A stretch of DNA of 63,132 bases, filler included, from 7 parts of 7 records of this genome joined end to end with filler, not necessarily neighbours in it, one strand, 5' to 3'; positions 2,548-58,081 are shown, counted from the whole stretch's first letter. Numbers and translations are program-made. The notes: generated by a model from the letters alone, not told the origin.

Positions 2548-2563
2548 AAAATGGAATATTGCT

Positions 2564-3716
2564 ATGAAACCAAATACCAACAAACTCGTTGATCTACATC
2601 AAAGAGGCGTGACCTATCTTCGACTCTCCGTAACCGATCGATGCAATTTGAACTGTTGCTACTGTGCCCCTTCCAGACCGGCACTGGTGAAAAAAAGGAT
2701 CTGCTCTCATTTGATGAGATGGTTCGGGTGTCGAAAATTGCCGTGGATCTCGGCATTCGTAAAATCAGACTCACCGGGGGGAACCTTTATGCAGGCCCGA
2801 GATCGTCACGCTTACGGAAACGCTGTCCGCCCTTGACGGCATCGACGATATTTCTCTTACAACCAACGGCATCACTCTTGACCAGCATGCCGAGTCTCTC
2901 AAAAAAGCCGGTATGAATCGCATCAATATCAGTCTCGACACCCTGAATCGTGACAAGTTCAGACAGATCACCGGTGTGGATGGATTTGACAAGGTGTGGA
3001 ACGGAATCATGGCGGCCATGGATGCAGGGTTTTCCCCTATCAAAATCAACACCGTGGTGATGAAAGGTGTCAATGACGATGAAATCGAGTCGCTGGCGGC
3101 GCTATCCCTCAACTATCCCTTTCATGTCCGGTTTATCGAGTACATGCCCATCGGTGCCTGCGCAAAAGGGGCGGGAGACTTTTTTCTTCAGGTGGATGAA
3201 ATTAAACATCGGATATCCAATCTCGGATCGCTTCATCCGGTGACATCCGGACAATTGGACGGCCCGGCTGTCCGTTATCGCATAGACCCCGAACATGGGG
3301 GGAACTCCCAGGATGAGTCAAATAATGGAATCTCTTTGAAAGGGTCACTTGAGGAAATCTCTCTGGAAGAATCACCCCATAAGAGCCCGTTTGACCATTC
3401 AGGCTTGAATCATTCCAAGGCGGAATTTACACCGGAAAAAGCTGAAGGAAGAGGGGAAATCGGCGTCATCGGCTCCATGAGTCAACACTTTTGCGCCACC
3501 TGTAACCGAATGCGCCTCACTTCCAACGGATTTTTACGCCCCTGTCTTTTGTCCGACACCCAGGTGGATCTCATGGGCACGTTAAGAGGCGGCACGTCCG
3601 ATCAACAGATTCAACAACTTTTCATCAAAGCCCTTCATTTGAAGAAAAACGCCCATCGTCTTACCTTTCTGGAAGAGGATCGGCTGAGGACTCAAATGGC
3701 AAGTATCGGCGGATAA
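2564..3716 (+). CDS. moaA: GTP 3',8-cyclase MoaA (radical SAM); two homopolymer frameshifts (~2690 A-run, ~2780 G-run)
   Basis: YLRLSVTDRCNLNCCYC, RLTGG(EP), LTTNG, NISLDTL, RFIEYMP, FCATCNRMRLT..PCL and C-terminal IGG, spread over three frames. Confidence 0.9.
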
Positions 3717-3770
3717 TGTCAATAGCGGATGTATAAGTACCAAAGCAAATGCTCACCAAGGGGAATGCGA

Positions 3771-4439
3771 ATGAATACGGATCGAAAAATTGACTGCAGC
3801 GCGGTGATTGTCTCCGGAGGGCTCAACTCACGGATGGGTGGGAGAAACAAAGCCTTTCTGCAAATTGGAGAACACCCCATCCTCTCAAGGCTGCTAAACA
3901 CCCTTGAGCCGGTTTTTGAAGACATCTTACTGGTGACACGCAATCCGGAGTTTTACGCAGGATATCCAATTCGCATTGTCACCGATATTTTTGAAGATCG
4001 ATCATCCCTCACGGGGATCCATTCCGGTCTCACCCATGCGGTCAACGAGAATGCGTTTATTGTACCCTGTGATGCCCCTTTTATTCAACCGGATGTGGTC
4101 AGACTGCTTCTGGATGAAATGAAACCGGAAAACGATATTGTCATTCCCCATCATGACGGATACTACGAGCCGCTTTGTGCCATTTACTCCAAACGGTGTC
4201 TAGCACAAATCGAAAGTCAGCTTACGGAAAAAAACTATCGAATTTTCGATTTTTTTGACGATATGGATATCAAACGGATTTCCAGGGATAAAATTCAATC
4301 GGTGGATCCCGGACTGATCTCTTTTTTCAATGTAAACACGCCGGATGCGCTGGCCCATTCCAGACGGATGGCTGAGGAGATCGATGACGGACATTCAGCT
4401 GATTTCGGCGCTCCTATCATTGAACTCGTGGAAATCTGA
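3771..4439 (+). CDS. mobA: Molybdenum cofactor guanylyltransferase MobA
   Basis: GGLNSRMGGRNKA, PCDAPF, EPLCAIY, FFNVNTP; start chosen by spacing from the AAGGGGA RBS. Confidence 0.9.
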   Translation: MNTDRKIDCSAVIVSGGLNSRMGGRNKAFLQIGEHPILSRLLNTLEPVFEDILLVTRNPEFYAGYPIRIVTDIFEDRSSLTGIHSGLTHAVNENAFIVPCDAPFIQPDVVRLLLDEMKPENDIVIPHHDGYYEPLCAIYSKRCLAQIESQLTEKNYRIFDFFDDMDIKRISRDKIQSVDPGLISFFNVNTPDALAHSRRMAEEIDDGHSADFGAPIIELVEI

Positions 4440-4478
4440 AAAAATGATGAATGCAAAATGATGAATATTGAATGGTGA

Positions 4479-5075
4479 ATGGTTTTACAAACCATGAATA
4501 ATCTACAACATCAAACGGAGAATAAACTATTGAAAATACTTGGAATCAGTGGCAGCTTAAGAAAAGAGTCATTCAACACCAAACTTCTCCAAAATGCAAC
4601 AGCGCTTCTCCCGGAAGGATCTTCATTGGAGATTTTCGATATCTCGGGCATTCCACTCTACAACGCTGAGCTGGACGGAGACGAGCAACCCGAATCGGTC
4701 GTTGCATTGAAAAAGGCCATCGAAGCATGTGAAGCCTTACTCTTTGCTTCGCCCGAGTACAACTACAGCATCTCCGGCGTGCTGAAAAATGTCATCGATT
4801 GGGCCTCACGACCGGCCTATAAATCGGTAATGGCAGGAAAACCGACCGGAATTATCAGCACATCAGGCGGACCGCTGGGCGGTGCCAGATCACAAGCACA
4901 GCTTCGCTATGTTTTGGCTGCGACATTAACACCGGTGCTGCCGGAGAGAGAATACACGGTGCCAAATGCAGCGTTGGCATTTGATGAAAAAAATGGACGC
5001 CTGAAAGAAGCAAAGATGTCCGATAGGCTTGCCGCATATTTGGAACGATTCGTGGAGTGGGGGGCTTGGTTTTGA
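4479..5075 (+). CDS. NAD(P)H-dependent FMN reductase (SsuE/ChrR-like)
   Basis: GISGSLRKESFN, SPEYNYSISGVLKNVIDWASR, GGARSQ. Confidence 0.9.
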   Translation: MVLQTMNNLQHQTENKLLKILGISGSLRKESFNTKLLQNATALLPEGSSLEIFDISGIPLYNAELDGDEQPESVVALKKAIEACEALLFASPEYNYSISGVLKNVIDWASRPAYKSVMAGKPTGIISTSGGPLGGARSQAQLRYVLAATLTPVLPEREYTVPNAALAFDEKNGRLKEAKMSDRLAAYLERFVEWGAWF

Positions 5076-5512
5076 CTGAAACGGTTCAAAAAGATCATTT
5101 TGCAGAACATCTCGGCATAAACATCATTTCTGTCACATTGGGTCGTGCAAAAGTGGAGATGGAAATTAAACAGCGCCATTTGAATGCCTTGAATCTTGTT
5201 CATGGCGGCGCCATTTTCGGGCTTGCCGACTATGCGTTTGCTGCTGCAGCAAACTCACACGGGACTGCGGCTCTGGGAATCAATGTCAGCATTTCCTATA
5301 TGAAAGCAGCCCAAAGTGTAGGAAAACTGTATGCTGAAGCAATTGAAGTTTCAAGGAATCCAAGGCTTGGGACCTACATCATTCATGTAACGAATGATGA
5401 GGATGAAAAAATTGCCTTTCTGACAGGAACCGTTTATCGAAAAAAAGATAAAATCAAATTGTTCTTCCCCGACGAAGAAACTGTCGAAAACGGCAATGTG
5501 ATTAAAGATTAG
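5072..5512 (+). CDS. PaaI-family hotdog thioesterase
   Basis: HLNALNLVHGGAIFGLAD motif; TTG start overlaps the upstream stop (TTGA). Confidence 0.88.
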   Translation: MTETVQKDHFAEHLGINIISVTLGRAKVEMEIKQRHLNALNLVHGGAIFGLADYAFAAAANSHGTAALGINVSISYMKAAQSVGKLYAEAIEVSRNPRLGTYIIHVTNDEDEKIAFLTGTVYRKKDKIKLFFPDEETVENGNVIKD

Positions 5513-6348
5513 GCATCCTCATCTTCTTCATTTTGAACCGACGGTGGTGGGGCGGCATCGTCGTTCTCATTTTCTTTTGGTTGAGCAATAAGTCTCTCAT
5601 ATGTACCGTCGGATTTCATTTCCTCCAATACGTTCTGCCATCGGGTCGCCGTACGCATCATATTTTTTGATGCACCGATATAAAAGACAAGATCGATATC
5701 GGCAAACCCTAATTTAAATGCATTGCCATCGAATCCGCTACTTTCGATGGTATGCATCATGATCAGCTCCGCTGCATACCAGGCATCAATTCTATTTCTC
5801 AGCAGTTTTTTTATGTTGAGGGATTCTTTTCTCACCGTATCTATCCCGGTGAAATTTAAGTTCTGGAGCCGTTTCAAAGGAGGGGTTCTGAGAACCACCC
5901 CCACATTGAGTCCCCTAAAATCATCCAAAGAACTGAACATCCTCTCATCGGACTTTCTCACAAAAAAGACAAAGCGATCTTTCAGGATGGGGCCGATCCA
6001 GAGGTAGTTCTCTTCCCGCTCAGCCGTTCGTCCCAAGGGATAGATGAGCCTGTCCTCATCCTGCCGGGAAAAGACAATCGCTCTTGACCATGGGAGGGAT
6101 TCGATTTGGTAGTCATCCCCTGTTCTTTTGCATATCTCTTTTACGATGGCGCTACCAAGTCCAACCTGGGAATTTTCTGCGTGATAGGAATAGGGGGGTA
6201 ATTCTCCGGTGAGTATATGAATTGGTTCTGCTGAAACGATTTTTCCGATGAAAAAATTTGACAATATAAGAACGAAAGATACAAGAAATATTGATGCTGT
6301 AAAGGCTTTTAGCCCTCCGTTTTCAATGAAAGCTTGTCTATGGCTCAT
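5509..6348 (-). CDS. Family 3 extracellular solute-binding protein
   Basis: Hydrophobic signal segment, TGELPPYSY, LPWSRA, RTAERE..WIGP, MKSDGTY. Confidence 0.85.
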   Translation of the reverse strand: MSHRQAFIENGGLKAFTASIFLVSFVLILSNFFIGKIVSAEPIHILTGELPPYSYHAENSQVGLGSAIVKEICKRTGDDYQIESLPWSRAIVFSRQDEDRLIYPLGRTAEREENYLWIGPILKDRFVFFVRKSDERMFSSLDDFRGLNVGVVLRTPPLKRLQNLNFTGIDTVRKESLNIKKLLRNRIDAWYAAELIMMHTIESSGFDGNAFKLGFADIDLVFYIGASKNMMRTATRWQNVLEEMKSDGTYERLIAQPKENENDDAAPPPSVQNEEDEDA

Positions 6349-7177: not shown

Positions 7178-7277
7178 NNNNNNNNNNNNNNNNNNNNNNN
7201 NNNNNNNNNNNNNNNNNNNNNTTAATTAATTAANNNNNNNNNNNNNNNNNNNNNNNNNNNNNNNNNNNNNNNNNNNN
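7178..7277. other. Artificial contig linker
   Basis: N-run/TTAATTAATTAA/N-run, 100 bp. Confidence 0.99.
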
Positions 7278-9972: not shown

Positions 9973-10021
9973 TTCTTTATGCTCCCTTTTTTCTTTATTA
10001 TAACCAATTGTTTTAGCAAGT

Positions 10022-10041
10022 AATGTTGCAAATATCACATT
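10022..10041. promoter_or_regulatory. Crp/Fnr-type operator candidate upstream of the cupin gene
   Basis: AATGTTG-CAAATA-TCACATT; 5-N6-5 geometry like the site at 11313. Confidence 0.4.
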
Positions 10042-10054
10042 TTTGGGGTGGCAA

Positions 10055-10780
10055 TTAAACATCGTTATAAACAATAGCATTGGTTGGGCATTTTTCTACT
10101 GTTTCCATTATTGATGTAATATCTATGTTGCTCTGTGGTAAGGCTTTTACTTTTGCTTTGTTATCCTGTATCTCATACAGTTCCGGCATCATCTTTTCGC
10201 ATAATCCGCATCCAATACAGTATTCCTCTTTTACGGATAGTATTTCAGACTTATCTTGAGATTCTTCGTCTGACAAATCTTTTTCTTTTACAAAAACGGC
10301 TGTTAAATAACCCATCATTAAAATAGATATAACTGTAAGAATCCATCTGACTGCCATGAATTCTAGACCCAAAAACTTTGCTTCGTTTGCAAGCATTGGA
10401 ACTTTAATAACTGCCCACGAGCTGAGGATAATGACAATATTTGTTATGCTGGCACCTTTTTTAAGCAATGATTTACCTATTGGAAAAGCCGCATAGATTG
10501 GTCCTGCTGATATGCTACCGAGTATAAGGGCAAGTATATTCCCTTTTATGCCAGATTTTTTACCAAAGCCACGTATGATGACTTCTTTTGGAACCCATGC
10601 TTCAATTACTACAGTAAGTAAAAATATTATAGGTAATACTTGTAGCATCTCTACCAAGTAGTAAGCGCTGTTGGATAATGATTGTGATGCTTTTTGTGGT
10701 GCAACTATAAAAACGACTATATATGCTAGTGCAACAAATATCACTATTTTATTCTTTTTTAAAAAGTTTAGTATCTTCAT
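10055..10780 (-). CDS. DUF318-like permease fused to a C-terminal ferredoxin
   Basis: TM region with GSISAGPIYAAFP; tail CIGCGLC...CPTNAI. Confidence 0.82.
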   Translation of the reverse strand: MKILNFLKKNKIVIFVALAYIVVFIVAPQKASQSLSNSAYYLVEMLQVLPIIFLLTVVIEAWVPKEVIIRGFGKKSGIKGNILALILGSISAGPIYAAFPIGKSLLKKGASITNIVIILSSWAVIKVPMLANEAKFLGLEFMAVRWILTVISILMMGYLTAVFVKEKDLSDEESQDKSEILSVKEEYCIGCGLCEKMMPELYEIQDNKAKVKALPQSNIDITSIMETVEKCPTNAIVYNDV

Positions 10781-11258
10781 AATATAATCCCCATTGCCAA
10801 GGCAATAATTACCGCAAAGCCAAAGCTCATTGCGTTTCTTGTTAGTGCAAATTTAGTACCAAATTCCTTTTTTCGAGCGGGAAAGTTACTATACCTACCA
10901 TGGTTAGTGTTGTTAGAAAAGCAACCGCAGGCACTATGCTTGCTCCTGCATCCACCAACGAGCCAACCAATGGGAAACCAACAAAAGCGGGTATTAGCGT
11001 TATGCTTCCTATAATCGCGCCTATGATTGTTGAAATAAAAGTATTTGAAGAACCCATAACCGATTTTATGGTATCTGGTGGAACAAACGTTAGAATTAGT
11101 CCGATAAGAAAAATAATCGCGACTATTTGCCCAAGCATATTGCCCATCATTTTCTTTGACTTTTTCATCGCAGAAAATGTTTTTTTCTTGTTTTTGATAA
11201 ACGAAATTATAGCAAGTACTACTGCAACAATTAAAAATATTAGTGTGAAAATATCCAT
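10777..11258 (-). CDS. DUF318-like permease, small partner; frameshift at T-run ~10866
   Basis: GSITLIPAFVGFPL, TLTMVG..TFPLE; shifted frame continues EFGTKFALTRNAMSF..GIIL* with an ATGA overlap into the next gene. Confidence 0.8.
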
Positions 11259-11312
11259 ATAAATAACACCTTTCTTGATATAAGAAAAGTATAGAAGTAT
11301 AATAACTATAAT

Positions 11313-11332
11313 GGCGTTACCAAGGTAACACC
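11313..11332. promoter_or_regulatory. Palindromic operator between divergent permease operon and Crp/Fnr gene
   Basis: GGCGTTACC-AA-GGTAACACC. Confidence 0.6.
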
Positions 11333-11372
11333 TTATCAATTGTTTTTGGAAATATATTTAGGAGAGTTTTTA

Positions 11373-12029
11373 ATGCAAAAATATCATTCACTTTTAGAAA
11401 AAGCGACTTTACTGCAGGATATCGATTTAAACGAAGTTTTGGACTATGTTAAAGATGGGCGGTTTAAAATAAAAAACTACAACGAAAATAACATCATTCA
11501 TTTTGAGGGTGAACGTTGCGTGAAACTTGAGATCATAATTTCGGGCGAAGTTTTTGTAGAGCGTGTTGATGAATCGGGCGGGCTACTTACTATTGCAAAG
11601 TTTGAAGATGATGATATTCTTGGTGGTAACTTGCTTTTTTCGAATAATCCCATTTTTCCTATGACAACAACAGCCAAAAAACAAACAACAATAGTTGAAA
11701 TAGAAAAAGAGCTTTTATTTGATTTGTTTGTAAAACACCCTTTGTTTTTAAGAAGATACCTAGAGTTTATGTCTGACCGTACAGCTGTTTTGGGCAATAA
11801 AATTAGATACTATGTTAAAAAGACAATAAGAGAAAGCTTGATGGGCTTTTTACAGCATGAAAGCAAAATACAAAATTCAAACAGGGTAATGCTTTCTATG
11901 AGCAAGAAGGCTTTGGCCGATAAAATTGGTGTTCAGCGTACATCGCTTTCGCGTGAGCTTACTAAAATGAAAAAAGATGGATGGATTGATTTTGATGAGA
12001 AAAGTATTACTTTGCTTGGGGATAGATAA
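11373..12029 (+). CDS. Crp/Fnr family transcriptional regulator (HcpR-like)
   Basis: cNMP-like domain (IISGEV..GGNLLF) and HTH LADKIGVQRTSLSRELTKM; AGGAG RBS. Confidence 0.9.
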   Translation: MQKYHSLLEKATLLQDIDLNEVLDYVKDGRFKIKNYNENNIIHFEGERCVKLEIIISGEVFVERVDESGGLLTIAKFEDDDILGGNLLFSNNPIFPMTTTAKKQTTIVEIEKELLFDLFVKHPLFLRRYLEFMSDRTAVLGNKIRYYVKKTIRESLMGFLQHESKIQNSNRVMLSMSKKALADKIGVQRTSLSRELTKMKKDGWIDFDEKSITLLGDR

Positions 12030-12042
12030 TGGAGGTAAAGAT

Positions 12043-13083
12043 TTGAAAAAAATTCTTATGCTTACTCTTATAACTGTAGTAATATCTCTTTGCTCATGCC
12101 AAGAATATAATAAGGAAATACAATCATCAATGGCTGTTGAATCGTCAGTTGTTGAGAATAAGGCTGAACGAAATAACGCCACTAGCGAATTTAGTATACC
12201 GATGTTTTCGGAAGATTCACCTTTTAATAGGCCTGTTGGTGATGACTATATTGTAGATGAAAATTCTGAGTTTATGGTTGAGCGTCTTTTAAAGGATATG
12301 CAGAACGGAAGCGATGCTGTTTTGTCTGTTGATAAGTGGTCGGTGACGGCATATTTTGCTGATAATAGTACGCCTAGATACGATATTAAGCTTACTAATA
12401 ATTGGGGTTTGGGTTATAAATATATACTGGATGTGCCTATTCCTGATGGGGCTATTGCTGATAAAATGAACGATGGTCATATGGCTGTTATTGATACTGA
12501 TAGTGGATATGTTTATGAATTTTGGCGATATAATGCGGATGAAAGTTGCGCTGTTTGGGGTAATCGTATTTCGCTTGGATCAAATGGCATATATGATGAT
12601 GGTATGTCGTCTAGGGGTTCTGGGTTTTGCTCGCTTTTGGGTATGATTTGGCCGCAGGAATTTGAGCAAGGATATATTGACCATGCACTCGTTTTATCCA
12701 TACCATCGACTAAATCTGGGGGTCCTGTTTTTCCTGCTACTGAATCTGACGGTAAAACTAATAAAGCTTACGCTATTCCTATTGGTGCAAGAATAATGCT
12801 TGATCCTAACCTTGATTTGGATGAATATAATTTAACAAAATATGAGAGGATTATCTGTGAATGCTTACAAAAATATGGAGCATTTGTGGGTGATACATCC
12901 GGATCTATTGAGTTTGAGGCAATAAGCCCACTGTCTTTTGATGAGGATGTATATAACGGCATGTTTACTGATGATTGGATTATTTTAGATCATATTTCGT
13001 TTGAGCATATATATATATTAGAGCTTGGTAAGCAAAACAAGAATCCGCATTTGAAGGTAATTGATGAGAGTATTTATAGGTAA
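12043..13083 (+). CDS. Uncharacterised lipoprotein
   Basis: GGAGGT RBS, TTG start, lipobox LCSC; conserved-looking motifs SPFN, DGHMAVID, HAL, ALQKYG-like, DTSG. Confidence 0.7.
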   Translation: MKKILMLTLITVVISLCSCQEYNKEIQSSMAVESSVVENKAERNNATSEFSIPMFSEDSPFNRPVGDDYIVDENSEFMVERLLKDMQNGSDAVLSVDKWSVTAYFADNSTPRYDIKLTNNWGLGYKYILDVPIPDGAIADKMNDGHMAVIDTDSGYVYEFWRYNADESCAVWGNRISLGSNGIYDDGMSSRGSGFCSLLGMIWPQEFEQGYIDHALVLSIPSTKSGGPVFPATESDGKTNKAYAIPIGARIMLDPNLDLDEYNLTKYERIICECLQKYGAFVGDTSGSIEFEAISPLSFDEDVYNGMFTDDWIILDHISFEHIYILELGKQNKNPHLKVIDESIYR

Positions 13084-13095
13084 ACGATTATTGAA

Positions 13096-13533
13096 TTATT
13101 TATCGATTATAAAAAAGTCGGATAACAATGTTTTCATGCTATCAGCAATTTTATTCTGACTTGCTTCATCGATTTCGGCATACAATTTTTGTACATTTTT
13201 GGTTATATCATCAAACGTAGTTGATACAAGTTCGTTCCCTTTATCCGTTAAATATAAAAAGTGGTTTCGTTTATCCTCTGAATCCTGCTTTTTTGTAAGT
13301 AATCCTTTTTCAATTAACCTCCTTGTCTCTCTGCTGCCATTAGGCATAGAAATATGTAAACAGTCGCAAATGGAAACTAGTTGTTTTCCTGGTGCGAAAT
13401 ATAAAATCTCTAAAATCATGTATTGGGATGCGGTTATCGATTTTGGCATCGCATTTGATTTTAGCGCGTGAACAGTTTTGCTTACTTCAGCAAAAAAGTT
13501 GATAGTTAAATCTGTAAATTCTTTTTTCAGCAT
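13096..13533 (-). CDS. MarR family regulator
   Basis: ITASQYMIL, L.EKGLL...DSEDKR..LYLTDKG. Confidence 0.9.
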   Translation of the reverse strand: MLKKEFTDLTINFFAEVSKTVHALKSNAMPKSITASQYMILEILYFAPGKQLVSICDCLHISMPNGSRETRRLIEKGLLTKKQDSEDKRNHFLYLTDKGNELVSTTFDDITKNVQKLYAEIDEASQNKIADSMKTLLSDFFIIDK

Positions 13534-13602
13534 TTTTATTTACCTCTAATATATTATTGCACAAAAGATATCAAAAAACAATTGTCTAAATATAATTATT
13601 AA

Positions 13603-13649
13603 TTGACAAGTATCTGTTTGTAGTATAAAATATGATTATCAAAAGATAA
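13603..13649 (+). promoter_or_regulatory. Sigma70/SigA promoter with downstream palindromic (MarR-like) operator
   Basis: TTGACA-17bp-TAAAAT; TTATC-AAAA-GATAA at 13636-13649. Confidence 0.65.
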
Positions 13650-13669
13650 CTATATGGAGGAAGCGGAAA

Positions 13670-14470
13670 TTGAATACAAAGATATATGTTTTTACTGCAA
13701 CAGGTACGGGGCTTTCAATTGCAAATGATATTGCAAAAAACTTGGAGTCATGTGAGATTTTATCGATCGGTAAGGCAATGCAACAAGATAATTGGAGTAT
13801 TGAAGGGGAATGTGTTGGGTTTGTCTTCCCTTGTTATTATGGGACTGCACCAAAGATTATAAAAGAGTTTATAAAAAAGGCAAGTGCAATAAATGCTGAG
13901 TATTTTTTTGCTGCGGCTAGTGCTGGTGGAGATATTGGATATAGCTTAAGGGCTTTGGATAAAGCTTTGAAGGCGCAAAATCAAAAACTGGATTACGGCA
14001 GAGGCGTTGCTGTTGGTTCGAATTATATGAGTGGCTGGTATTACGATAGGATATATCCAAGTGACGATGTTTTGAAAAAAAGAGTAAATGATGTTCAAAA
14101 GCTATGTGTTGATATGGCTAAAGACATCAAAAACAAAGTGAAAAGCGTAGATAAAGCGTCATTTGGAGGCTATATTATGCCTAACATTTTGAGCGAAAAA
14201 AGATATATTAAGGATACAAGACCGCTTGATAGTGAGTACAGTATATCTGATTCCTGTGATGGGTGCGGAACTTGTGATAAAGTGTGCCCGGTAAATAACA
14301 TAAATATTGTAGACGGTAAACCAGAGTTTTTACATAACTGTCAAAGATGTATGGCTTGTATTCAGTTTTGCCCTAAGTCTGCTTTTTCTATTAATGGTAA
14401 AGCTATGGATAAGAAAAAGTATAAACATCCAAATGTGAGTTTGAAGCAACTTATTGACTTTAATAATTAA
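13670..14470 (+). CDS. EFR1-family flavodoxin-ferredoxin fusion
   Basis: FTATGTG, GFVFPCY; CDGCGTCDKVCP and CQRCMACIQFCP. Confidence 0.88.
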   Translation: MNTKIYVFTATGTGLSIANDIAKNLESCEILSIGKAMQQDNWSIEGECVGFVFPCYYGTAPKIIKEFIKKASAINAEYFFAAASAGGDIGYSLRALDKALKAQNQKLDYGRGVAVGSNYMSGWYYDRIYPSDDVLKKRVNDVQKLCVDMAKDIKNKVKSVDKASFGGYIMPNILSEKRYIKDTRPLDSEYSISDSCDGCGTCDKVCPVNNINIVDGKPEFLHNCQRCMACIQFCPKSAFSINGKAMDKKKYKHPNVSLKQLIDFNN

Positions 14471-14614
14471 AAGATGACGATGACAAAACCTTGAAAATTT
14501 AAAAAATACAGTATACAATTAATATATAAGCATAGGAATACATTTTGAAGTATATGATTTGGTACCCTATGCTTTTTATATTTTTATTTTTAAAGTAAGT
14601 GGATAGAAAAGTTT

Positions 14615-15706
14615 ATGATGATATTTTATTTTGCTGTTGAGGTGATTATAAGTGCAGCATATATTTATAAAATGCTTGTAGAGGGTTTGCAAGCTGATTT
14701 TTTGAGTATATTTATCTGGCTTTTTTATTTTTGTTTGAAGCTTTTATATTACATATTTGATGAAAAACGACTAAGAATATCGTTTTTAATTGCGTCGAAC
14801 TTGTTTATATTAATTTGTATAGGCATCAGTTCAAATATTGCTTTTTTCTTTTTGTTTTCGTTTAGTCAGCTATTAAGCGAGACTGGCATAAAAAATAAAT
14901 ATATTGCTTTATTGGGTTTGTGCTTTGTAAGCATAGTAGATAATAAATCTTTATTTATACTTATAAGTGCTTTTAGTTTTATGTGTTATCAAATTTTATT
15001 GGAAAACAAAAGGTTGAGGGATAAGGCTTTTAGTGAGAGTGAAGCTTTAAAGAAAGAAAAACAAAGAGCGGAGAAGATGTTTTTTGAGGTTGAAAAAACC
15101 AACAAGAGTGAACTGTATCGTGTTAAGTTAGAAGAGCGAGCTAGGATTCTTCAAAACATGCATGACGAGGTTGGCCATACTATAACAGGAAACATAATGA
15201 GAATCGAGGCGGTTAAATACCTTACAACACAAGAGCAGTTAAAAGAAGAGCTTACTACTATTGCTGATAATCTTAGATCTGGTATGGATAATATAAGAAA
15301 GATTATAAGGGATTTAAAGCCTCAGGATACATCGTTAAATATAACCAGTATTAAAAAAATGGTTTCTGATATTGTTGTAAATAAGTCGATCGATATTACG
15401 CTTGATTATTCCAGTGATATTTCTGTTATTAAAGAAAATGAATGGGAAGTTATATATTTAAATATAAAAGAAGCTCTGACCAATATGATTAAGTTTTCGG
15501 ATGCTAAGGTTTGTAGGATTGAGTTTATTAGACTGAACAAGGCTTTTAAGGTTTCTATAAAAGACGATGGTACTGGATGCAAAAATATTGTTAAAGGCAT
15601 TGGGCTTTCTGGTATGGACAAAAGGATTAAGGATATAGGGGCAAATATTATTTTTGATGGTAGTGATGGGTTTAGTGTAATTATGTTGTTTAATATTGAT
15701 AAGTAA
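14615..15706 (+). CDS. Membrane sensor histidine kinase (HisKA_3)
   Basis: ERARILQNMHDEVGH, EALTNMIK, DDGTG, GIGLSGM. Confidence 0.92.
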   Translation: MMIFYFAVEVIISAAYIYKMLVEGLQADFLSIFIWLFYFCLKLLYYIFDEKRLRISFLIASNLFILICIGISSNIAFFFLFSFSQLLSETGIKNKYIALLGLCFVSIVDNKSLFILISAFSFMCYQILLENKRLRDKAFSESEALKKEKQRAEKMFFEVEKTNKSELYRVKLEERARILQNMHDEVGHTITGNIMRIEAVKYLTTQEQLKEELTTIADNLRSGMDNIRKIIRDLKPQDTSLNITSIKKMVSDIVVNKSIDITLDYSSDISVIKENEWEVIYLNIKEALTNMIKFSDAKVCRIEFIRLNKAFKVSIKDDGTGCKNIVKGIGLSGMDKRIKDIGANIIFDGSDGFSVIMLFNIDK

Positions 15707-15733
15707 AACATATGAAAAGGAATAGATAATATT

Positions 15734-16339
15734 ATGGGTATAAGAGTTTTAATTGTTGATGATGATAGTTTGATATCTGAAAGCTTAAAGATAATTTTAT
15801 CAAGAGATGATAGGATTTATGTCGTTGGTGCGGTTGAAAACGGTCAAAAAGCAATTGATGCTTGTTTAAACCAAAATGTTGATATTGTACTTATGGATAT
15901 TAGAATGCCAGTTTTAAATGGTATAGAGGCGACTAAAGCTATCGTTAAAAAGACAAAGACTAAGGTTTTAATACTGACAACTTTTGATGACGACGAGTAT
16001 GTTTCTAAGGCTATTGAGTATGGGGCTAAGGGGTATCTTTTAAAAAGCAATAAACCAGAAGTTATTGTAAATTCTATTATTTCGGTTGATGGAGGTAGTG
16101 CTGTTATTCAAGAGCAGCTTATGGATAAGCTTACTGTTAAATCTGATGATAAAAAGCTATATGGGCTTACTGAACGTGAGAAAAATATTGTGGTTAATAT
16201 AGCTAAGGGTATGACCAATAAGGAGATTGCGGCAGAGCTTTTTTTGTCTGAAGGAACGATAAAAAATAACATAACATCTATTCTTTCTAAACTAGAGTTG
16301 AAACACAGAACACAAATTGCTGTTTATTATCTTACTTGA
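15734..16339 (+). CDS. NarL/LuxR response regulator
   Basis: VDDD, MDIRMP, LTTFDDD, LTERE..NKEIA..LSEGTIKN. Confidence 0.94.
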   Translation: MGIRVLIVDDDSLISESLKIILSRDDRIYVVGAVENGQKAIDACLNQNVDIVLMDIRMPVLNGIEATKAIVKKTKTKVLILTTFDDDEYVSKAIEYGAKGYLLKSNKPEVIVNSIISVDGGSAVIQEQLMDKLTVKSDDKKLYGLTEREKNIVVNIAKGMTNKEIAAELFLSEGTIKNNITSILSKLELKHRTQIAVYYLT

Positions 16340-16455
16340 TTAAATAATCGGTAATAATATCGTATAAAAATATATGCACATGCTTTAGCAAGAGCGAATA
16401 ACAAAGATTTGATTGATGCTTTTGCTTAGTGGCTAAATAAGTTTGTAACTAAATA

Positions 16456-16487: not shown

Positions 16488-16587
16488 NNNNNNNNNNNNN
16501 NNNNNNNNNNNNNNNNNNNNNNNNNNNNNNNTTAATTAATTAANNNNNNNNNNNNNNNNNNNNNNNNNNNNNNNNNNNNNNNNNNNN
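16488..16587. other. Artificial contig linker
   Basis: N-run/TTAATTAATTAA/N-run. Confidence 0.99.
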
Positions 16588-32537: not shown

Positions 32538-32637
32538 NNNNNNNNNNNNNNNNNNNNNNNNNNNNNNNNNNNNNNNNNNNNTTAATTAATTAANNNNNNN
32601 NNNNNNNNNNNNNNNNNNNNNNNNNNNNNNNNNNNNN
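32538..32637. other. Artificial contig linker
   Basis: N-run/TTAATTAATTAA/N-run. Confidence 0.99.
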
Positions 32638-32710
32638 CCTTACCTCCAATCTATAAAAATTTTTATTCGATAATCATTTAAACAAATCCGTGTGAATACA
32701 GCACGGATTT

Positions 32711-32929
32711 TATCAGCACTTTGCCGATCATAGTGGCTTTGTTCCGCTTCCCTGCCTTCCTAGGAAACCGGAACATAAGGGGAAAACAGAGTCAGGAGTA
32801 GATTACACACAAGAGAATGCCTTGAAAGGATTGCGGTTTGCGTCTCTGGATGAGCAAAATGCTCATTTGCGGCAGTGGAATAAATGTTGGGCGCACACAC
32901 AGATACCTGAAGAGGTACTGCAATTGTAA
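32711..32929 (+). pseudogene. istA: IS21 transposase IstA internal fragment
   Basis: FADHSGFVPLPCLPRKPEHKGKTESGVDY..NALKG..F.SLDEQN.HL..W; no start; preceded by hairpin AAATCCGTG..CACGGATTT. Confidence 0.75.
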
Positions 32930-33096
32930 AAATCAAGCAGTTTTTTCACAGGTAGGGCAAGGAGTATTTTCACCCCCAAAAGTCAATCCATGACAGGTCA
33001 TATAACTATGCTATGACAGATAGGTATGATCATCCTGATTTAATAACAATAAAAAAACACTTAGCTTTACATCATAATAATATAGATAAAGTTTTT

Positions 33097-34414
33097 TCAT
33101 GAGAATTTCAATTTATCTAGAAAATTCATATATTCAACTTTAGTTTTGTAAATAGTAGAAAAATGAATTATCCTAGAGTAAAAGAGATTAACTATAATTA
33201 AAAATCTACTAAGATCATCTTTTTTTGGATCATCCAAATTATCATAATCAACAAACTTACCATGATGCACTAATCCTGATCTAATCTTGTATACTCTTTT
33301 TATTAAGCTTATTGTATCTTTTCGTTCCTTTGCATTTTCTCCATTATTAAATGCTATTCTTTCAGCAATAGACGTTGTGATGTTTTCAGACTCATTCTTC
33401 AATAATAATGACTCTAATGAAGAGAAGATATAAAGTAATCTACTAAATAGATCATGCTTCAAACCCTGTAAGGAATAAATATATATCGATTCTTCAATTT
33501 GAAATTGAAAATCTGTTTTGGGGTGCATATGATAAAAAGCAAAGAAATTAGAATGTTCTAGCATATTCAAATGTTTTTCTTTAAATATCTGATATTCACC
33601 ATGATCAATGACTCCAGTATGAAATCCATTAGCAGTCTCTTTATCTCCAAACAAAATAAAATGAGATTTCCTATATACTTGCCAATAATAAATATCTATT
33701 CTAGTTGTCACTCCAAATGATACATTACTTGCAGTAAAAATCCTTAATAAAGCAAATACTTTAGATATTTTTTGATGCGCTATATCTATTGCTTTATTTT
33801 CAACCGCTTTAACTCTTGTAATTGCTATAGCAAAACCTTGATACTCCTTTAGTATTTTCATCCTTCGATCTTCATCAATCTTAGAGACCCAACTATTTAG
33901 AAAAGACTTTGTCATAGTCTTAATTTCAATATCACCAATAACAAGATCCCTTTCTATTTCAGTTAATGGAATTGGTATTCCGATTTTAAACTCTTTTATG
34001 TCTTTCTTCATTTCTTGTTCTAGCCAATCTATATAATCAATTTTAATTCTCTCTTTCACATAAATAACTAGCCATGACATTGTTTGATGTTTCAAATATT
34101 CGTAATTACAGAAATTTCTAAAATTTGGATCTTTTAAAATATTATATATGATTATCTTTAAGTCATTATATAAATCATTCTTAATTTCATAATCCTTATC
34201 TTTTGTATTGAACACAAAACCTTGATCATCTCCAAAACCATTGACTAATTCTGTTTTTTCTATTTCGATTACCGATTTTATATGAGTAACAGGTCTTGAA
34301 CTTTTTCGATAAACTTTTTGCTTTAATCCTTGTTCTGGAGCTTTAGCATGTGATTCTATTTTTTTTAGAAACTCATCCATACGTTCCTGTATATAGATTC
34401 TTTTTTTGATTCAT
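33097..34414 (-). CDS. ApeA-like HEPN domain protein (putative defence RNase)
   Basis: C-terminal SSLESLL..IAERIAF..YKIRSGLVHHG (RxxxxH); ORF runs from 34380, with a probable true start at 34414 (AGGAG RBS) across an A-run indel. Confidence 0.75.
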
Positions 34415-34536
34415 TACCTTCTCCTGAGAATAAGAAATTAATTGTAAAGACAAAATGAGGTATAAAAACAATTGATGCAACATGAATTACCCACGATTCC
34501 CATTCTTTTACAGATTAGGGATGGATTATTCATTAG

Positions 34537-34900
34537 CTACTTTTTGTTCTTACTACCTAAATCTATTATTTTCATAAGGATCTCAGGATTCTCAAGTAAA
34601 CTAGTCAGAACTTTCATTAATAAATCATTCTGCTGTGTATCTTTTGGAGCCTGTAGCAATGTTTTGATCGTTTCATCTTGCTAACTGATAAGAAGGCCTA
34701 TCTGCTCTTTTACATCTCTTCTTGTTTCATCTGATATCGATTCAGTTTTTGCAGCCTTCAAATTAATTTCATTCAATAAATTCTCAGTGTTTTTCTTTGT
34801 TTGTTTAGCCTCATCTAATTGCTGTTTTACTAAATATCCTTGTCAAAAAGCAATGATTACGGCTATTAAAAGATATTCCAACAGGTATAATCGTTTCCAA
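34537..34900 (-). pseudogene. Disrupted ~120-aa N-terminal TM + coiled-coil protein
   Basis: AGGAG + TTG; METIIPVGIS/LIAVIIAF*QGYLVKQQLDEAKQ..LIS*QDE..KNKK*; one frameshift, TGA at 34843, TAG at 34681. Confidence 0.65.
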
Positions 34901-34916
34901 TATCAACTCCTAGAAA

Positions 34917-35849
34917 TTATTCTATACCAACACTACCATTAGTTCTTGATTCATCGTCATATAGATATTGACAACAATAATCAAGGAACCGTTGTATTTC
35001 TAAAATATCAAATTTATGATTAATAAAATCATCTGGATGAACACATATCACCAATTCATCAACAATCTTTTTATCAGCTGAAAATGCCATGAAAGAATAT
35101 ACAATCTCTTTTAACAAGTCAGATCGACTCCGATTAATTCCAGTTTTTCCCGATCCCAGAATGGGTAAAACCAATTTTCCCATGTGCCCTCTTTCTAATA
35201 GAAAGTTCCAAAAGGAATCTAAGGATTGTTGCATAATTTCCATTGATGAGCTTGGTTTACCATACTTATTCACATCAGCCATAGCAATCCAATAAGATTT
35301 AAATTTTTCATGAGTGAGTTTTATGACTGTTCCAAACTCATATCTATTTCTTTTTGTCTCTCTTCCATCACTTAGCACTTCTTTAATCTCATAACCATAT
35401 TCATTAATTGACCTTTGAATATCAGCATCAAGATAATCATTTTTCTTATAAATTTTTTCCGTCAGGATACCTTGAATTGAATTTTCAGATATGAAACCGT
35501 TATCAAAAGTAGTGTCAAATGTTGTGTTCGCAACCAGACCAATATCACCATCTTGGTTAAAAATATCACCTATAACTAAACAAATATTGATATCTTTATT
35601 TTTTATCTTATATTTAAATTCTAATCTTTGATAATTGAAAATTATACTAAAAAGAAGTGTTACAATAAAACCAATTATTATTAAACATAACTTCCCAAAT
35701 AAAATGCTTTTCTCAAAAGATAGATTTACTATTTCAACTATAGTAAGTTCGATACTTAACAAAGTGAAAAAGGTACTGACAACTTTATTCCAGTTCTTTT
35801 GCCAATAAGCACTAGAAAAGAAAAATTTCAAATGCATAAGTATTTTCAC
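34917..35849 (-). CDS. thsA: Thoeris ThsA-like effector: two TM helices plus macro domain
   Basis: Two hydrophobic segments, then IGDIF..ANTTFDT..SIQG..YEFGTV..LPILGSG; 11 bp downstream of the TIR gene. Confidence 0.8.
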   Translation of the reverse strand: MKILMHLKFFFSSAYWQKNWNKVVSTFFTLLSIELTIVEIVNLSFEKSILFGKLCLIIIGFIVTLLFSIIFNYQRLEFKYKIKNKDINICLVIGDIFNQDGDIGLVANTTFDTTFDNGFISENSIQGILTEKIYKKNDYLDADIQRSINEYGYEIKEVLSDGRETKRNRYEFGTVIKLTHEKFKSYWIAMADVNKYGKPSSSMEIMQQSLDSFWNFLLERGHMGKLVLPILGSGKTGINRSRSDLLKEIVYSFMAFSADKKIVDELVICVHPDDFINHKFDILEIQRFLDYCCQYLYDDESRTNGSVGIE

Positions 35850-35860
35850 AATTGTTTCCT

Positions 35861-36364
35861 CTAATCTAACCCAAGTTTTTTATAAACTTCAGGCTTATAA
35901 TGATAAGAGACTTGCTTATCAGATTTACTATATTGTTCATGTGAACTTGGCCAATTCTCTAAAGCATATTGCAATATTTTCGCATTAAAACTGATATGTA
36001 TTGCTAATTTATCTTTTAAAATAGGTGGACACCTATCGTCATCATAACCTCTTTTACCGTTTAAATTTATAACAATACAAGGCAAATCTCTTTTGAGAGC
36101 TTGCTCTATTTCCCATCTTACATACTTAAATAAATACCTGGTACTTTTCCCAACTAATAAAACAAAGACTTTGCTATTTCGTAATCGTTCTTGTAATCCA
36201 GCCTTTATTGATTCTTCACTTTTATCATAGATATTATTTATTTCATGAGCATCATAAAAATTGAATGAAGTTTTATCACTCTGTTTCCAAGCCCTCATTA
36301 ATCTATAATAGCGAATGTCATTATCTGCATCCATTGATATATAGACTTTATTCTTATATGGCAT
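35861..36364 (-). CDS. thsB: Thoeris ThsB-like TIR (MTH538/DUF1863) protein
   Basis: KVYIS.D, FNFYDAH, ERLRNSK.FVLLVG..T, YVRWEIEQAL with the catalytic Glu; AGGAGG RBS. Confidence 0.85.
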   Translation of the reverse strand: MPYKNKVYISMDADNDIRYYRLMRAWKQSDKTSFNFYDAHEINNIYDKSEESIKAGLQERLRNSKVFVLLVGKSTRYLFKYVRWEIEQALKRDLPCIVINLNGKRGYDDDRCPPILKDKLAIHISFNAKILQYALENWPSSHEQYSKSDKQVSYHYKPEVYKKLGLD

Positions 36365-36470
36365 TGATTCCTCCTGAAAAAACTATTTATAACCCAGAAC
36401 TTGCAATACTATATGCTACTACAAAACATATTTTTTAGCAAATAAACTATAAATCTCATTACATAAATTT

Positions 36471-37598
36471 TCATAGACTATACAAACTCATCCTTTGATT
36501 TCCTCGATACCTATAATGTCTTCCTTGATGTTCCCAAGTATTGATGATGTTCTGTTGTAAACCTTCATACTCATCTTTAGTGATCTTTAGTATCTTTTTC
36601 TCGAAATGTAATAACCCGATCTTTTCCCCATAAATACCCCACCTCCTATCTACATTTTCATACTCTTCTGGTACTTCATGCTGATATTCTTTTGCTTTAC
36701 ATTTCTTATTACCTTTACTGATATACCAGACATGATAACTGATCAGGCCTTGTTTACTTTCTTTAATCTCACTAGCTCCAATACCTGCTTTTCGGTGTTT
36801 ATCAATTGCACTACGCTTTTCTTTTTCTGTAAATCCCTCTTGGTGTATGAATCCACTTTTCTACAAGATTTGACCAACTTTCTAATGCTCATAAACGGAG
36901 CATATCAATTGGGATCGGTATCCCTGTGATAAGAATCAAATGAAAATTAGGTGCCCTCTTCGTTGAAACTCCATCTTCCAGATAAAGGAAATATTTCCAT
37001 ATTCACGACAGAATCTCTTCAATCTCTTTGAGTATGCATGTAAATGGGCTTTGAGTATTTCCCCATCTTTCGGATAGATTGATGGATATGTGAAAATTAA
37101 TTCTCTTATTACATGATCAGGGATCATATCCCAATCAATCGTCAGGTGTTTCTCATAAAATCTCTTACAACTTTTCATGGAGTAATCAACGATATTCTTT
37201 CTTATCGGTATTTGCTTTCGTCGATGTAACAGTGTTTTCTGCTTTATGATTAGGGAATGCGGAGAAGCTTCTAACCAGTACGAAGTATCACCTGCTTCTC
37301 GATAGAGAATACTCTGCATCTCAAATCGATGCCATGATCTGGGAACCCCATTACGTTCTAGAAACTGTTTATCCAGTTCTTTTTGGCGTAACCACTATTC
37401 ATTTTTCACATAATAACGTTGATCATCTGTTAAATCTTAAAACTGTACATCTGTTGGTTTTTCATCAACACAAGTAGTGTTTTCTTCTGAAATGGTCAGA
37501 TATGGAATAATAGATAAACCATAGGAATCCAAAGATTCCTCGTATTCCATATCCTTATCAAATTCGGAAAATAGTTCAGCTTGCTTTGATTCGATCAT
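36471..37598 (-). pseudogene. HUH rolling-circle replication initiator, decayed
   Basis: FTYP, WKMEFQRRG/APNFHL, HRKAG, Y..WYISK, YQHEVPEEY.NVDRRWG; stops at 37437 (TAA), 37395 (TAG), 36889 (TGA) and two compensating frameshifts. Confidence 0.75.
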
Positions 37599-37784
37599 CT
37601 ATTCCCCCTGGTTCGAAAGATTTCTCTTCGATCCATGCGACTAGTTTTGACTCAATAAACCTAATACTCCCACCTCTTTAATAAATGGGATTTGTTTATG
37701 TGCAGTGAATCTGTACATAGTTGGCTTGCTGATGCGTAGTACTTCTACTGCTTCATCAAGAGTTAGCAATTTTTTTTTGTTCAT
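37576..37784 (-). CDS. Excisionase-like HTH (HTH_17) protein; 1-nt frameshift ~37678
   Basis: MNKKKLLTLDEAVEVLRISKPTMYRFTAHKQIPFIK/RGGSIRFIESKLVAWIE; GGAG RBS. Confidence 0.75.
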
Positions 37785-38237
37785 TTCTCCTCAGGGTTTG
37801 AGGGTTGCTAACAGGGGAACTTACCGTATGATTTCAATTACTTACTGGTGGGTTGTTCTCCTAGAGTAACCTTCCTTGGCTCTGGTAGTTAACGCTACTG
37901 GAGCCAAAATTATCCTTTTCAACTTTAATTATTCTTGGATTGTTCATCCTCTCTATACTTATCCCTAACAGGGTTTATTGACTTACTTTTCCTTTTTACC
38001 TTCAATTAATTTTCTATTGTAATAGACAATACACCCACTTTTGCGAAACAGGTCAAGTTATGAGCCACTTTTCTACATATTTATTTTCTTGTTACATCAA
38101 AAAGTCTGAATTACATCAATTCTATAAAAAAGACTTGATGAAAGATGATTAAACACACCCTTATCAAGTCTATGTATATTAAAGAGATATTATTACTTTT
38201 CCAGTTAATTGATGAAGATTGATTAACCCTCGAAACT

Positions 38238-38267
38238 GCTCAGTTGGCTAGAGCGCTTGAATGGCAT
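38238..38267 (+). tRNA. tRNA-Ala(GGC) fragment, 5' acceptor strand absent, cut by contig end (probable att duplication)
   Basis: GCTCAGTTGGCTAGAGCG D-arm and CTTGAATGGCAT anticodon arm; preceded by CGAAACT instead of GGGGCNNTA. Confidence 0.7.
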
Positions 38268-38367
38268 NNNNNNNNNNNNNNNNNNNNNNNNNNNNNNNNN
38301 NNNNNNNNNNNTTAATTAATTAANNNNNNNNNNNNNNNNNNNNNNNNNNNNNNNNNNNNNNNNNNNN
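38268..38367. other. Artificial contig linker
   Basis: N-run/TTAATTAATTAA/N-run. Confidence 0.99.
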
Positions 38368-50652: not shown

Positions 50653-50752
50653 NNNNNNNNNNNNNNNNNNNNNNNNNNNNNNNNNNNNNNNNNNNNTTAA
50701 TTAATTAANNNNNNNNNNNNNNNNNNNNNNNNNNNNNNNNNNNNNNNNNNNN
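50653..50752. other. Artificial contig linker
   Basis: N-run/TTAATTAATTAA/N-run. Confidence 0.99.
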
Positions 50753-57981: not shown

Positions 57982-58081
57982 NNNNNNNNNNNNNNNNNNN
58001 NNNNNNNNNNNNNNNNNNNNNNNNNTTAATTAATTAANNNNNNNNNNNNNNNNNNNNNNNNNNNNNNNNNNNNNNNNNNNN
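57982..58081. other. Artificial contig linker
   Basis: N-run/TTAATTAATTAA/N-run. Confidence 0.99.

Follow-up and report, generated by a model that had tools for sequence, protein, structure and literature searches.

The analysed window is a stretch of DNA of 63,132 nt, filler included, in which seven draft-assembly contigs stand end to end, separated by six linkers of the form N44-TTAATTAATTAA-N44 (7178-7277, 16488-16587, 32538-32637, 38268-38367, 50653-50752, and 57982-58081). The interval 32638-38267 corresponds exactly to one whole contig of 5630 bp; since it is bounded by linkers, its neighbours in the window are not real neighbours, and adjacency across the linkers is meaningless. This contig carries the remains of a small element with genes for an integrase, an excisionase (xis) and an HUH Rep protein, together with a type II Thoeris pair and a gene encoding a HEPN-like protein. 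An earlier description made from the DNA alone (the sequence-only reading) had listed, reading from a tRNA-Ala fragment, an xis-like helix-turn-helix (HTH) gene, an HUH Rep, a TIR gene, a transmembrane (TM)-macro gene and a HEPN gene on one strand, and profile and homology searches confirmed all of them, the last as a HEPN-like gene. The following features were assigned, the evidence being given in brackets:

32708..32902, plus strand: IS21-family IstA transposase, a fragment covering model positions 204-269 of 294 (NCBIfam NF033546, E 1.2e-16; Pfam rve_3, E 0.038)
32975..33102, plus strand: 3' remnant of a tyrosine integrase gene, about 40 codons, with an internal frameshift (catalytic-Tyr motif and nucleotide identity)
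33097..34380, minus strand: HEPN-like protein of 427 amino acids (aa), intact open reading frame (ORF) (family profile, motif, structure model)
34540..34899, minus strand: open-frame remnant with two in-frame stops, TGA and TAG
34917..35849, minus strand: ThsA with a C-terminal Macro domain, intact (PF20016, E 4.4e-43, profile positions 1-183 of 183; PADLOC ThsA, E 5.7e-50; PDB 8v6q, E 6.4e-10)
35861..36364, minus strand: ThsB, a TIR protein, intact (PADLOC PDLC00429, E 1.9e-73 over positions 1-166 of 167; PF08937, E 4.4e-19; PDB 8v6t, E 2.8e-29)
36474..37598, minus strand: HUH Rep pseudogene of the PF23343 family (homolog coverage and a profile of homologs)
37576..37784, minus strand: xis-like HTH_17 excisionase gene, frameshifted (HTH_17, E 4.8e-7)
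37800..37910, minus strand: conserved non-coding block upstream of xis (alignment with relatives)
38238..38267, plus strand: 5'-truncated copy of tRNA-Ala(GGC), tRNA positions 10-39 (30-mer search and ARAGORN at genomic loci)

The guanine-cytosine (GC) content of the contig is 31.5%, compared with 40.4% elsewhere in the window. Inside the contig, it is 27-30% in the cargo and 36-37% in xis and rep.

The Rep gene is heavily damaged. When it is read through its stops (with X at each of them), the translation spans 100% of homologs of 370-400 aa; there were 16 matches, all of the PF23343 family, and the best showed 58% identity. A hidden Markov model (HMM) of 13 Rep homologs matched the main frame, except for profile positions 215-262, which were matched in a second frame (E 1.1e-13). 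The gene therefore contains two frameshifts, one near 36954 in a G-run and the other at 36843-36846. Three stop codons lie on the true reading path, namely TAA (37437-37439), TAG (37395-37397), and TGA (36889-36891), the last of which replaces a Trp that is invariant in the homologs. The HUH motif reads NFH, its first His having been changed to Asn (36946-36948), against H-x-H in 12/12 homologs. Other changes at homolog-invariant columns are R to C in SRKRF, as well as G to D and W to R in NVGRWWG. Recoding of the stop codons was considered and rejected, because the in-frame stops comprise all three of TAA, TAG and TGA.

The xis gene is broken near 37675. A profile built from 11 relatives matched its N-terminal half (E 1.6e-20) and its C-terminal half (E 2.1e-9) in different frames; the original end of xis overlaps the Rep start, which is also the arrangement in the relatives. 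The three different stops, the two Rep frameshifts and the His-to-Asn change had all been reported in the sequence-only reading and were found again here, with the xis frameshift, missed there, as an addition.

Relatives of the element were sought with the Rep alignment. A genome scan gave 79 loci, and the best nine of them (31-59% identity) all lie in records named as Spirochaetota, with Pleomorphochaeta, Sphaerochaeta, Oceanispirochaeta, Marispirochaeta, and others among the genera. The remaining loci, with 23-35% identity, belong mostly to Actinobacteria. A metagenome scan supplied four further usable close relatives, and a viral collection contained one close relative only (L106). Thirteen relatives (L001-L009, L122-L124, and L126) were compared. 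L106 was excluded since its ORF layout repeats that of L002 with a 26-nt offset (the sequences themselves were not compared), and L125 was excluded at a length of just 1.9 kb.

In 11/13 relatives, an HTH_17 xis gene is located directly 5' of Rep and overlaps the Rep start. A Phage_integrase gene was likewise found in 11/13; it is convergent in 10 of them and truncated or split in two. At the integrase end of 8/13 relatives, ARAGORN called a tRNA for Gly, Leu or Arg, and direct attachment (att) repeats of 44-134 nt, derived from the 3' part of the tRNA and 4600-6901 bp apart, were present in eight of the ten loci tested. One more gene, orfU, encodes 150-220 aa upstream of xis in 9/11 relatives tested (for example, L002 1433-2089, L005 9137-9676, L122 688-1209, and L126 7055-7570) and matches no Pfam or PADLOC family. 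The layout of the element is as follows: att, cargo, orfU, xis, Rep, cargo, integrase, tRNA; it has two variable cargo slots, from att to orfU/xis and from Rep to int. The window copy shares with this family the PF23343 Rep and the HTH_17 xis (both broken), the integrase remnant and the hairpin described below. Its orfU left no trace detectable by tblastn, and L003 and L006 are also without this gene. The nearest Rep is 58% identical at the protein level and the backbone DNA 64-70% identical, so that synonymous sites are saturated.

The integrase remnant is convergent with the cargo genes. It carries the motif AMTDRYDHP, corresponding to the catalytic-Tyr motif SMTDRYDHP conserved in integrases of the relatives, and shows 81-88% nucleotide identity to the 3' ends of int in L001, L002, L005, L122, and L126. 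The IstA fragment, which is not followed by istB, occupies the expected place of the remaining ~350 integrase codons, and therefore the integrase has been destroyed and does not simply lie outside the contig. The tyrosine integrase that the sequence-only reading expected of the element is accordingly represented inside the contig by its 3' remnant.

As for the opposite end, the tRNA-Ala 30-mer was found, with up to two mismatches, in 20/401 Spirochaetota genomes, whereas the reversed control was found in none; at the genomic loci of the 30-mer, ARAGORN called tRNA-Ala(ggc) in 5/5 tested. SufB, encoded in the contig next to this one in the window, shows just 46% identity to its counterpart in three of the four spirochaete genomes listed with an exact copy of the 30-mer, and its best match in the fourth (G180) was 22%. 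The nine bases 5' of the fragment show no agreement with the tRNA 5' end, and it is therefore a 5'-truncated copy running into the contig end. Because the fragment is just 30 nt long, ARAGORN detected no tRNA in the window and Rfam none on the fragment; across the whole window, no Rfam family reached its gathering score. By its place and orientation, which are those expected, the fragment is the predicted distal att repeat of the element. Two tRNA-derived att repeats are expected, of which this truncated copy is seen, and the other end lies beyond the contig or has been lost. A k=31 assembly graph that breaks at a repeat would leave a piece of k-1, which is the length of this fragment. A copy of this length also suggests at least one further copy of this tRNA segment in the genome.

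The ~110-nt non-coding block 5' of xis is conserved better than the genes of the element. It opens with an interrupted hairpin at 37876-37908 (minus strand), which was found in the window and in 6/13 relatives (L001 9692-9724; L002 2104-2138; L005 9688-9722; L122 1226-1257; L123 1317-1348; L126 7691-7725) and shows a compensatory change, CC:GG to TT:AA or the reverse. The block may be the nick site or origin used by Rep, or an operator. The inner hairpin unit, GTAG-N6-CTAC, is oriented in the window, L122, and L123 opposite to that in L001, L002, L005, and L126.

The cargo between rep and the integrase remnant is in a different state. ThsA starts 11 nt past the ThsB stop and has two N-terminal hydrophobic segments at residues ~23-45 and ~48-74 (Kyte-Doolittle hydropathy, not a dedicated TM predictor). 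Both proteins gave full-length PADLOC matches, in agreement with the sequence-only reading, in which TIR and macro were uninterrupted. ThsB and ThsA are predicted to be a complete type II Thoeris system. The described system has the same two-gene TIR plus TM-Macro architecture (10.1101/2024.01.03.573942), and the contig pair, which is adjacent, intact and full-length, shows no structural difference from it, its signal and phenotype being predicted from sequence. In type II Thoeris, the TIR protein responds to infection by producing His-ADPR, to which the ThsA Macro domain binds (10.1101/2024.01.03.573942); the effector then forms a cell-killing membrane pore (10.64898/2025.12.03.692087). The "TM/coiled-coil gene" of the sequence-only reading did not hold up as a gene: two stops interrupt the frame at 34540-34899, and neither a homolog nor a Pfam match of it turned up.

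All six lesions counted in these genes (6/6) fall within the 1.35 kb of xis and rep, and none within the 2.72 kb of ThsB, ThsA and the HEPN-like gene (P ~0.0013 under an even spread). This distribution fits continued selection on the cargo only. Were the lesions sequencing or assembly artefacts, the element would be functional. The frameshift near 36954 does lie within a G-run and the possible start shift of the HEPN-like gene within an A7 run. The only matching public read run (15% of words) gave short identical contigs at a low depth of 2-4, none of them spanning 36774-37713; the run possibly derives from the source sample itself and does not count as independent evidence. However, the stops are three substitutions that made three different codons, the HUH His has become Asn, further invariant columns have changed in SRKRF and NVGRWWG, the integrase is down to about 40 codons that abut a transposase fragment, and the 2.7 kb of cargo in the same contig are free of lesions. 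With these data, an artefactual origin of the damage is very improbable.

The HEPN-like protein has two domains, of which the N-terminal one is alpha/beta and unannotated and the C-terminal one helical and HEPN-like. One frame of the ORF covers positions 12-447 of the family profile. About 34 nt upstream, an ATG with a Shine-Dalgarno sequence (AGGAG) before it is separated from the ORF by an A7 run (34401-34407) and is not in its frame, which agrees with the remark of the sequence-only reading on at most one A-run indel near the start. Sequencing error, decay and a slippage switch are all possible causes of this offset. Removal of one A in the upstream ATG region (34401-34414, minus strand) would add 11 residues to the protein.

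A word search found three close homologs of this protein. With an exhaustive search by profile, the family grew to 3663 proteins at E<=1e-3 and to 744 clusters at E<=1e-30; almost all of these are 440-455 aa long and were matched over their whole length. Among 35 members, R367 and H372 (R-x4-H) are invariant within the motif Y..RS.F.HHG, which agrees with the R-x4-6-H pattern of HEPN proteins. None of the 35 has a sequence match in Pfam, PADLOC or PDB, and the names of 10 clusters are "hypothetical protein" or absent. An AlphaFold model of the protein was obtained with pLDDT 88 and pTM 0.82. Foldseek searches with the model against PDB and BFVD gave nothing at E<=0.001. In an exhaustive structural alignment (VIA) of residues 286-413, HEPN toxins and domains were on top (8xdj, Z 7.7; 1ylm, 7.6; 7ae2, 7.4; 5yep, 7.3), followed by Csm6, AbiA, sacsin HEPN, AbiV, and HepS. 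The alignment with 8xdj (Z 7.7, rmsd 3.4) covers 106 residues, a Z below 8 being middling for helical bundles. By fold plus motif, the C-terminal domain is likely, though not proven, to be HEPN.

With the HEPN abortive-infection proteins (ApeA, AbiV, HepS, and HEPN toxins), the contig protein shares the R-x4-H motif and an alignment of the C-terminal ~130 residues, whereas its N-terminal domain of ~285 aa has found no match so far. Identity with ApeA was rejected: hhalign against seven ApeA-like proteins gave a probability of 0.36% (0.36 on the 0-100 scale), and the ApeA models of Pfam or PADLOC (HEPN_Apea PF18739, ApeA_NTD) matched 0/35 members. In a protein atlas, the nearest named clusters were Apea-like HEPN at 0.84-0.90, which is weak and serves as a lead only.

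The distribution of the family in the searched genomes is sparse. A full-length copy was found in 1/401 Spirochaetota genomes (L093, G404:C1, in the region 9997-16441), and all of the 401 Pseudomonadota genomes searched were without a match at E<=1e-20. Scans of the metagenomes and of the viral collection with the HEPN-like alignment were empty, and tblastn of three members against plasmids and of one against phages gave no match. The neighbours of the L093 copy encode an SRAP peptidase, a LexA-like S24 peptidase, a family-B DNA polymerase, and two unannotated proteins of 396 and 490 aa. A match of a homing-endonuclease model on this polymerase was taken as spurious. Proteins sharing only the C-terminal HEPN-like domain were also seen, namely in L082 (144-2428) beside putAbiC and a Cap4-type nuclease, in L088 (2022-2873) beside PDC-S31, and in L092 (2579-3214) beside SIR2. 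These neighbours hint at a defence context for the domain.

The sequence-only reading had treated Thoeris and HEPN as one cargo combination, and a three-gene system, in which the HEPN-like protein is a second effector or a sensor of the Thoeris signal alongside ThsB and ThsA, was considered. The genes share the strand and the cargo slot, with ~540 bp between them, and have a similar GC content of 27-30%. Nevertheless, the interval between them holds only the broken ORF without homologs, the described type II system is sufficient with TIR and TM-Macro (10.1101/2024.01.03.573942), and the HEPN-like family has a constant length of ~450 aa across its 744 clusters. The sole full-length relative seen in genomic context, L093, has neither a TIR nor a Macro neighbour, and the term HEPN does not occur in a TIR-system survey (10.64898/2025.12.03.692087; term search). 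A joint system is quite improbable. Since the L093 copy lacks TIR, Macro and PADLOC-recognised neighbours, the HEPN-like gene is read as independent of Thoeris; most likely, it is a separate, single-gene abortive-infection gene with a predicted RNase-type activity. With 744 clusters and no annotation, the family makes a specific candidate for a novel defence gene.

The cargo slots of the relatives were searched with PADLOC, and matches were obtained in 11/13 relatives at E<=1e-4 and in 7/13 at E<=1e-15; L122 and L004 gave none. In the Rep-int slot, which in the window copy holds type II Thoeris and the HEPN-like gene, L002 has Drt4 (E 2e-140), L007 a DUF4365 nuclease, L006 a WYL protein, and L126 a truncated PDC-S20 (E 1.4e-54). 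In L005 (11300-12659), a ThsB-like TIR gene followed by a caspase gene (Peptidase_C14), a type IV Thoeris pairing, fills the slot that type II Thoeris occupies in the window copy. Unknown ORFs also occur in this slot. In the att-xis slot, the following were found: a NucC-like nuclease in L001 (E 1.2e-32), PDC-S06 (E 7e-126) with a PD-Lambda-3_A-like protein in L003, a NERD-zinc-ribbon protein in L005 and L126, and Vsr, a C5 methylase (type II MTase, E 1.5e-89) and an REase in L008. An element family serving as a vehicle for defence genes, as the sequence-only reading had supposed, is supported by this cargo and by the tRNA and att associations of the Rep homologs. The same is true of its view that the vehicle was being grounded with its cargo kept, considering the confinement of the lesions to xis and rep and the integrase remnant with its IS21 fragment.

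Taken together, the contig is likely what is left of a small integrative element that replicated itself and is now immobilised, its mobility genes dead and its cargo kept. By analogy with tyrosine recombinases that act with Xis, with HUH initiators, and with the biology of integrative and conjugative elements from actinomycetes (AICEs) and of integrative and mobilizable elements (IMEs) (PMC5704250, PMC2440964), Int and Xis of intact copies would excise a circle at the tRNA repeats. Rep would nick the origin, probably the hairpin, and the circle would be copied by rolling-circle replication (RCR). Spread to new cells would take place via a helper, because transfer or packaging genes are absent from the elements. 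In the window copy, the mobility functions all appear to be dead, with about 40 integrase codons left, xis frameshifted, Rep carrying three stops, two frameshifts and HUH damage, and orfU absent. In the Rep-int slot, the reading frames of the Thoeris pair and of the HEPN-like gene remain open, presumably under selection. Such a copy would be a snapshot of a host keeping immunity genes as the vehicle that delivered them rots.

Several points weigh against this interpretation. Two of the three frameshifts lie in or next to short homopolymers and are possible sequencing errors, and the reads of the one public run found leave the Rep lesions uncovered. A single att copy is visible, clipped by the contig end, so integration at tRNA-Ala is deduced, not seen. 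The GC content differs from that of the remaining window, and membership of the contig in this genome is presumed. Excision, replication and the defence phenotype are predictions only. The HEPN fold match has only a middling Z for a helical bundle, no HEPN Pfam model matches the family, and among 14 scanned neighbours of the L093 HEPN-like gene no defence gene recognised by PADLOC was found.

The element could instead be non-autonomous and not dead, retaining its cis sites, with Int, Xis and Rep supplied in trans by an intact sibling element of the same cell. The hairpin block and an att copy are indeed retained despite the decay of the genes, and sibling copies do co-occur, L006 and L007 being two of them on one contig of one genome. 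On the other hand, the integrase-proximal end, where the second att site is expected, has been replaced within the contig by the IS21 fragment, and no sibling Rep, int or tRNA was found beyond chance in the other ~57 kb of the window. We consider this possibility unlikely. That the contig comes from a free replicon, either a rolling-circle plasmid or one resembling a filamentous phage, and not from a chromosomal island, is extremely improbable. The Pfam family of Rep, PF23343, takes its name from inovirus G2P and plectrovirus ORF2, and distant Rep relatives occur on small plasmids and on viral contigs of 6-7 kb; yet the contig DNA has zero matches in the plasmid and phage collections, it has a tRNA fragment at one end and a transposase fragment at the other, close relatives are located between att repeats in chromosomal contigs of up to 4.5 Mb, and no capsid or morphogenesis genes were seen. 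The immobilised chromosomal relic remains the preferred explanation.

Another decayed copy was observed among the relatives. L126 (5715-12045), beside tRNA-Gly(ccc), has a Rep ORF of 255 aa, an integrase split into 115 and 181 aa, and the truncated PDC-S20; its 68-nt att repeats are retained despite the decay. This suggests that the fate of a decayed vehicle recurs.

Among the known mobile elements, AICEs of the pSAM2 type are likewise small elements that carry Xis and a rolling-circle Rep together with a tyrosine integrase directed at tRNA genes (PMC2440964). Distant Rep relatives with 27-35% identity occur in Actinobacteria, for example, in L016 beside HTH_17 and int, and in L032 beside an FtsK-like gene on a plasmid. 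Unlike in AICEs, the ORFs scanned in the window and in the 13 relatives included no FtsK_SpoIIIE or Tra transfer gene, and RepSA models miss the close Rep, the closest intact one giving E 0.083 with NF041486. The gene order (xis-rep, then convergent int), the size of 4.6-6.9 kb and the anti-phage cargo are further differences. A weak PF20199 match (E ~1e-4) was seen in 2/9 distant Rep proteins scanned.

IMEs with relaxases of the RCR-initiator type (Guedon et al. 2017, PMC5704250) are also small integrated elements with their own int and xis, an HUH/RCR protein and no mating-pore genes. In both kinds of element, the HUH/RCR protein could serve maintenance as well as mobilisation. The elements described here differ from those IMEs in their Rep family (PF23343, not Rep_trans, Rep_2 or PHA00330), in the absence of a coupling protein, in the host phylum Spirochaetota, and in having no known helper.

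Phage satellites of the P4-like type and of the PICI type (phage-inducible chromosomal islands) are islands flanked by att sites or tRNA genes, with a conserved backbone and swappable defence cargo. Defence islands such as pipolins and ciMGEs show the same combination of tRNA/att flanks, conserved backbone and hot-swappable defence cargo (PMC11551731, PMC10201445). Unlike all of these, the backbone of the elements described here consists of xis, HUH Rep and int, without primase, PolB or capsid-redirecting genes, and their dependence on a helper is presumed. Defence genes on integrative islands are an established theme (PMC10201445, PMC11551731), and the cargo system is a textbook case of type II Thoeris. 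The four-gene backbone in Spirochaetota, its hairpin and the unannotated HEPN-like family appear to be new; no literature on this spirochaete element family was found by term searches of open full text.

A broader proposal is tentative and, on balance, somewhat doubtful: that the xis/HUH-Rep/int elements are undescribed, helper-dependent minimal defence shuttles of Spirochaetota with a hairpin origin and two swap slots and, at the same time, that the ~450-aa HEPN-like proteins are a new, sporadic single-gene abortive-infection family missing from Pfam and PADLOC. The backbone, comprising the four genes, the att repeats and the hairpin, could be used to look for defence genes in a phylum that has been little studied, its cargo slots already holding known systems plus unannotated ORFs.

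Insertion sequences were also observed in or near the relatives. In L124, IS21 IstA and IstB genes are located at 2356-4414, and in L004 an IS3-like pair lies between int and the tRNA (3989-5520); both recall the IS21 fragment that replaced the integrase of the window copy.

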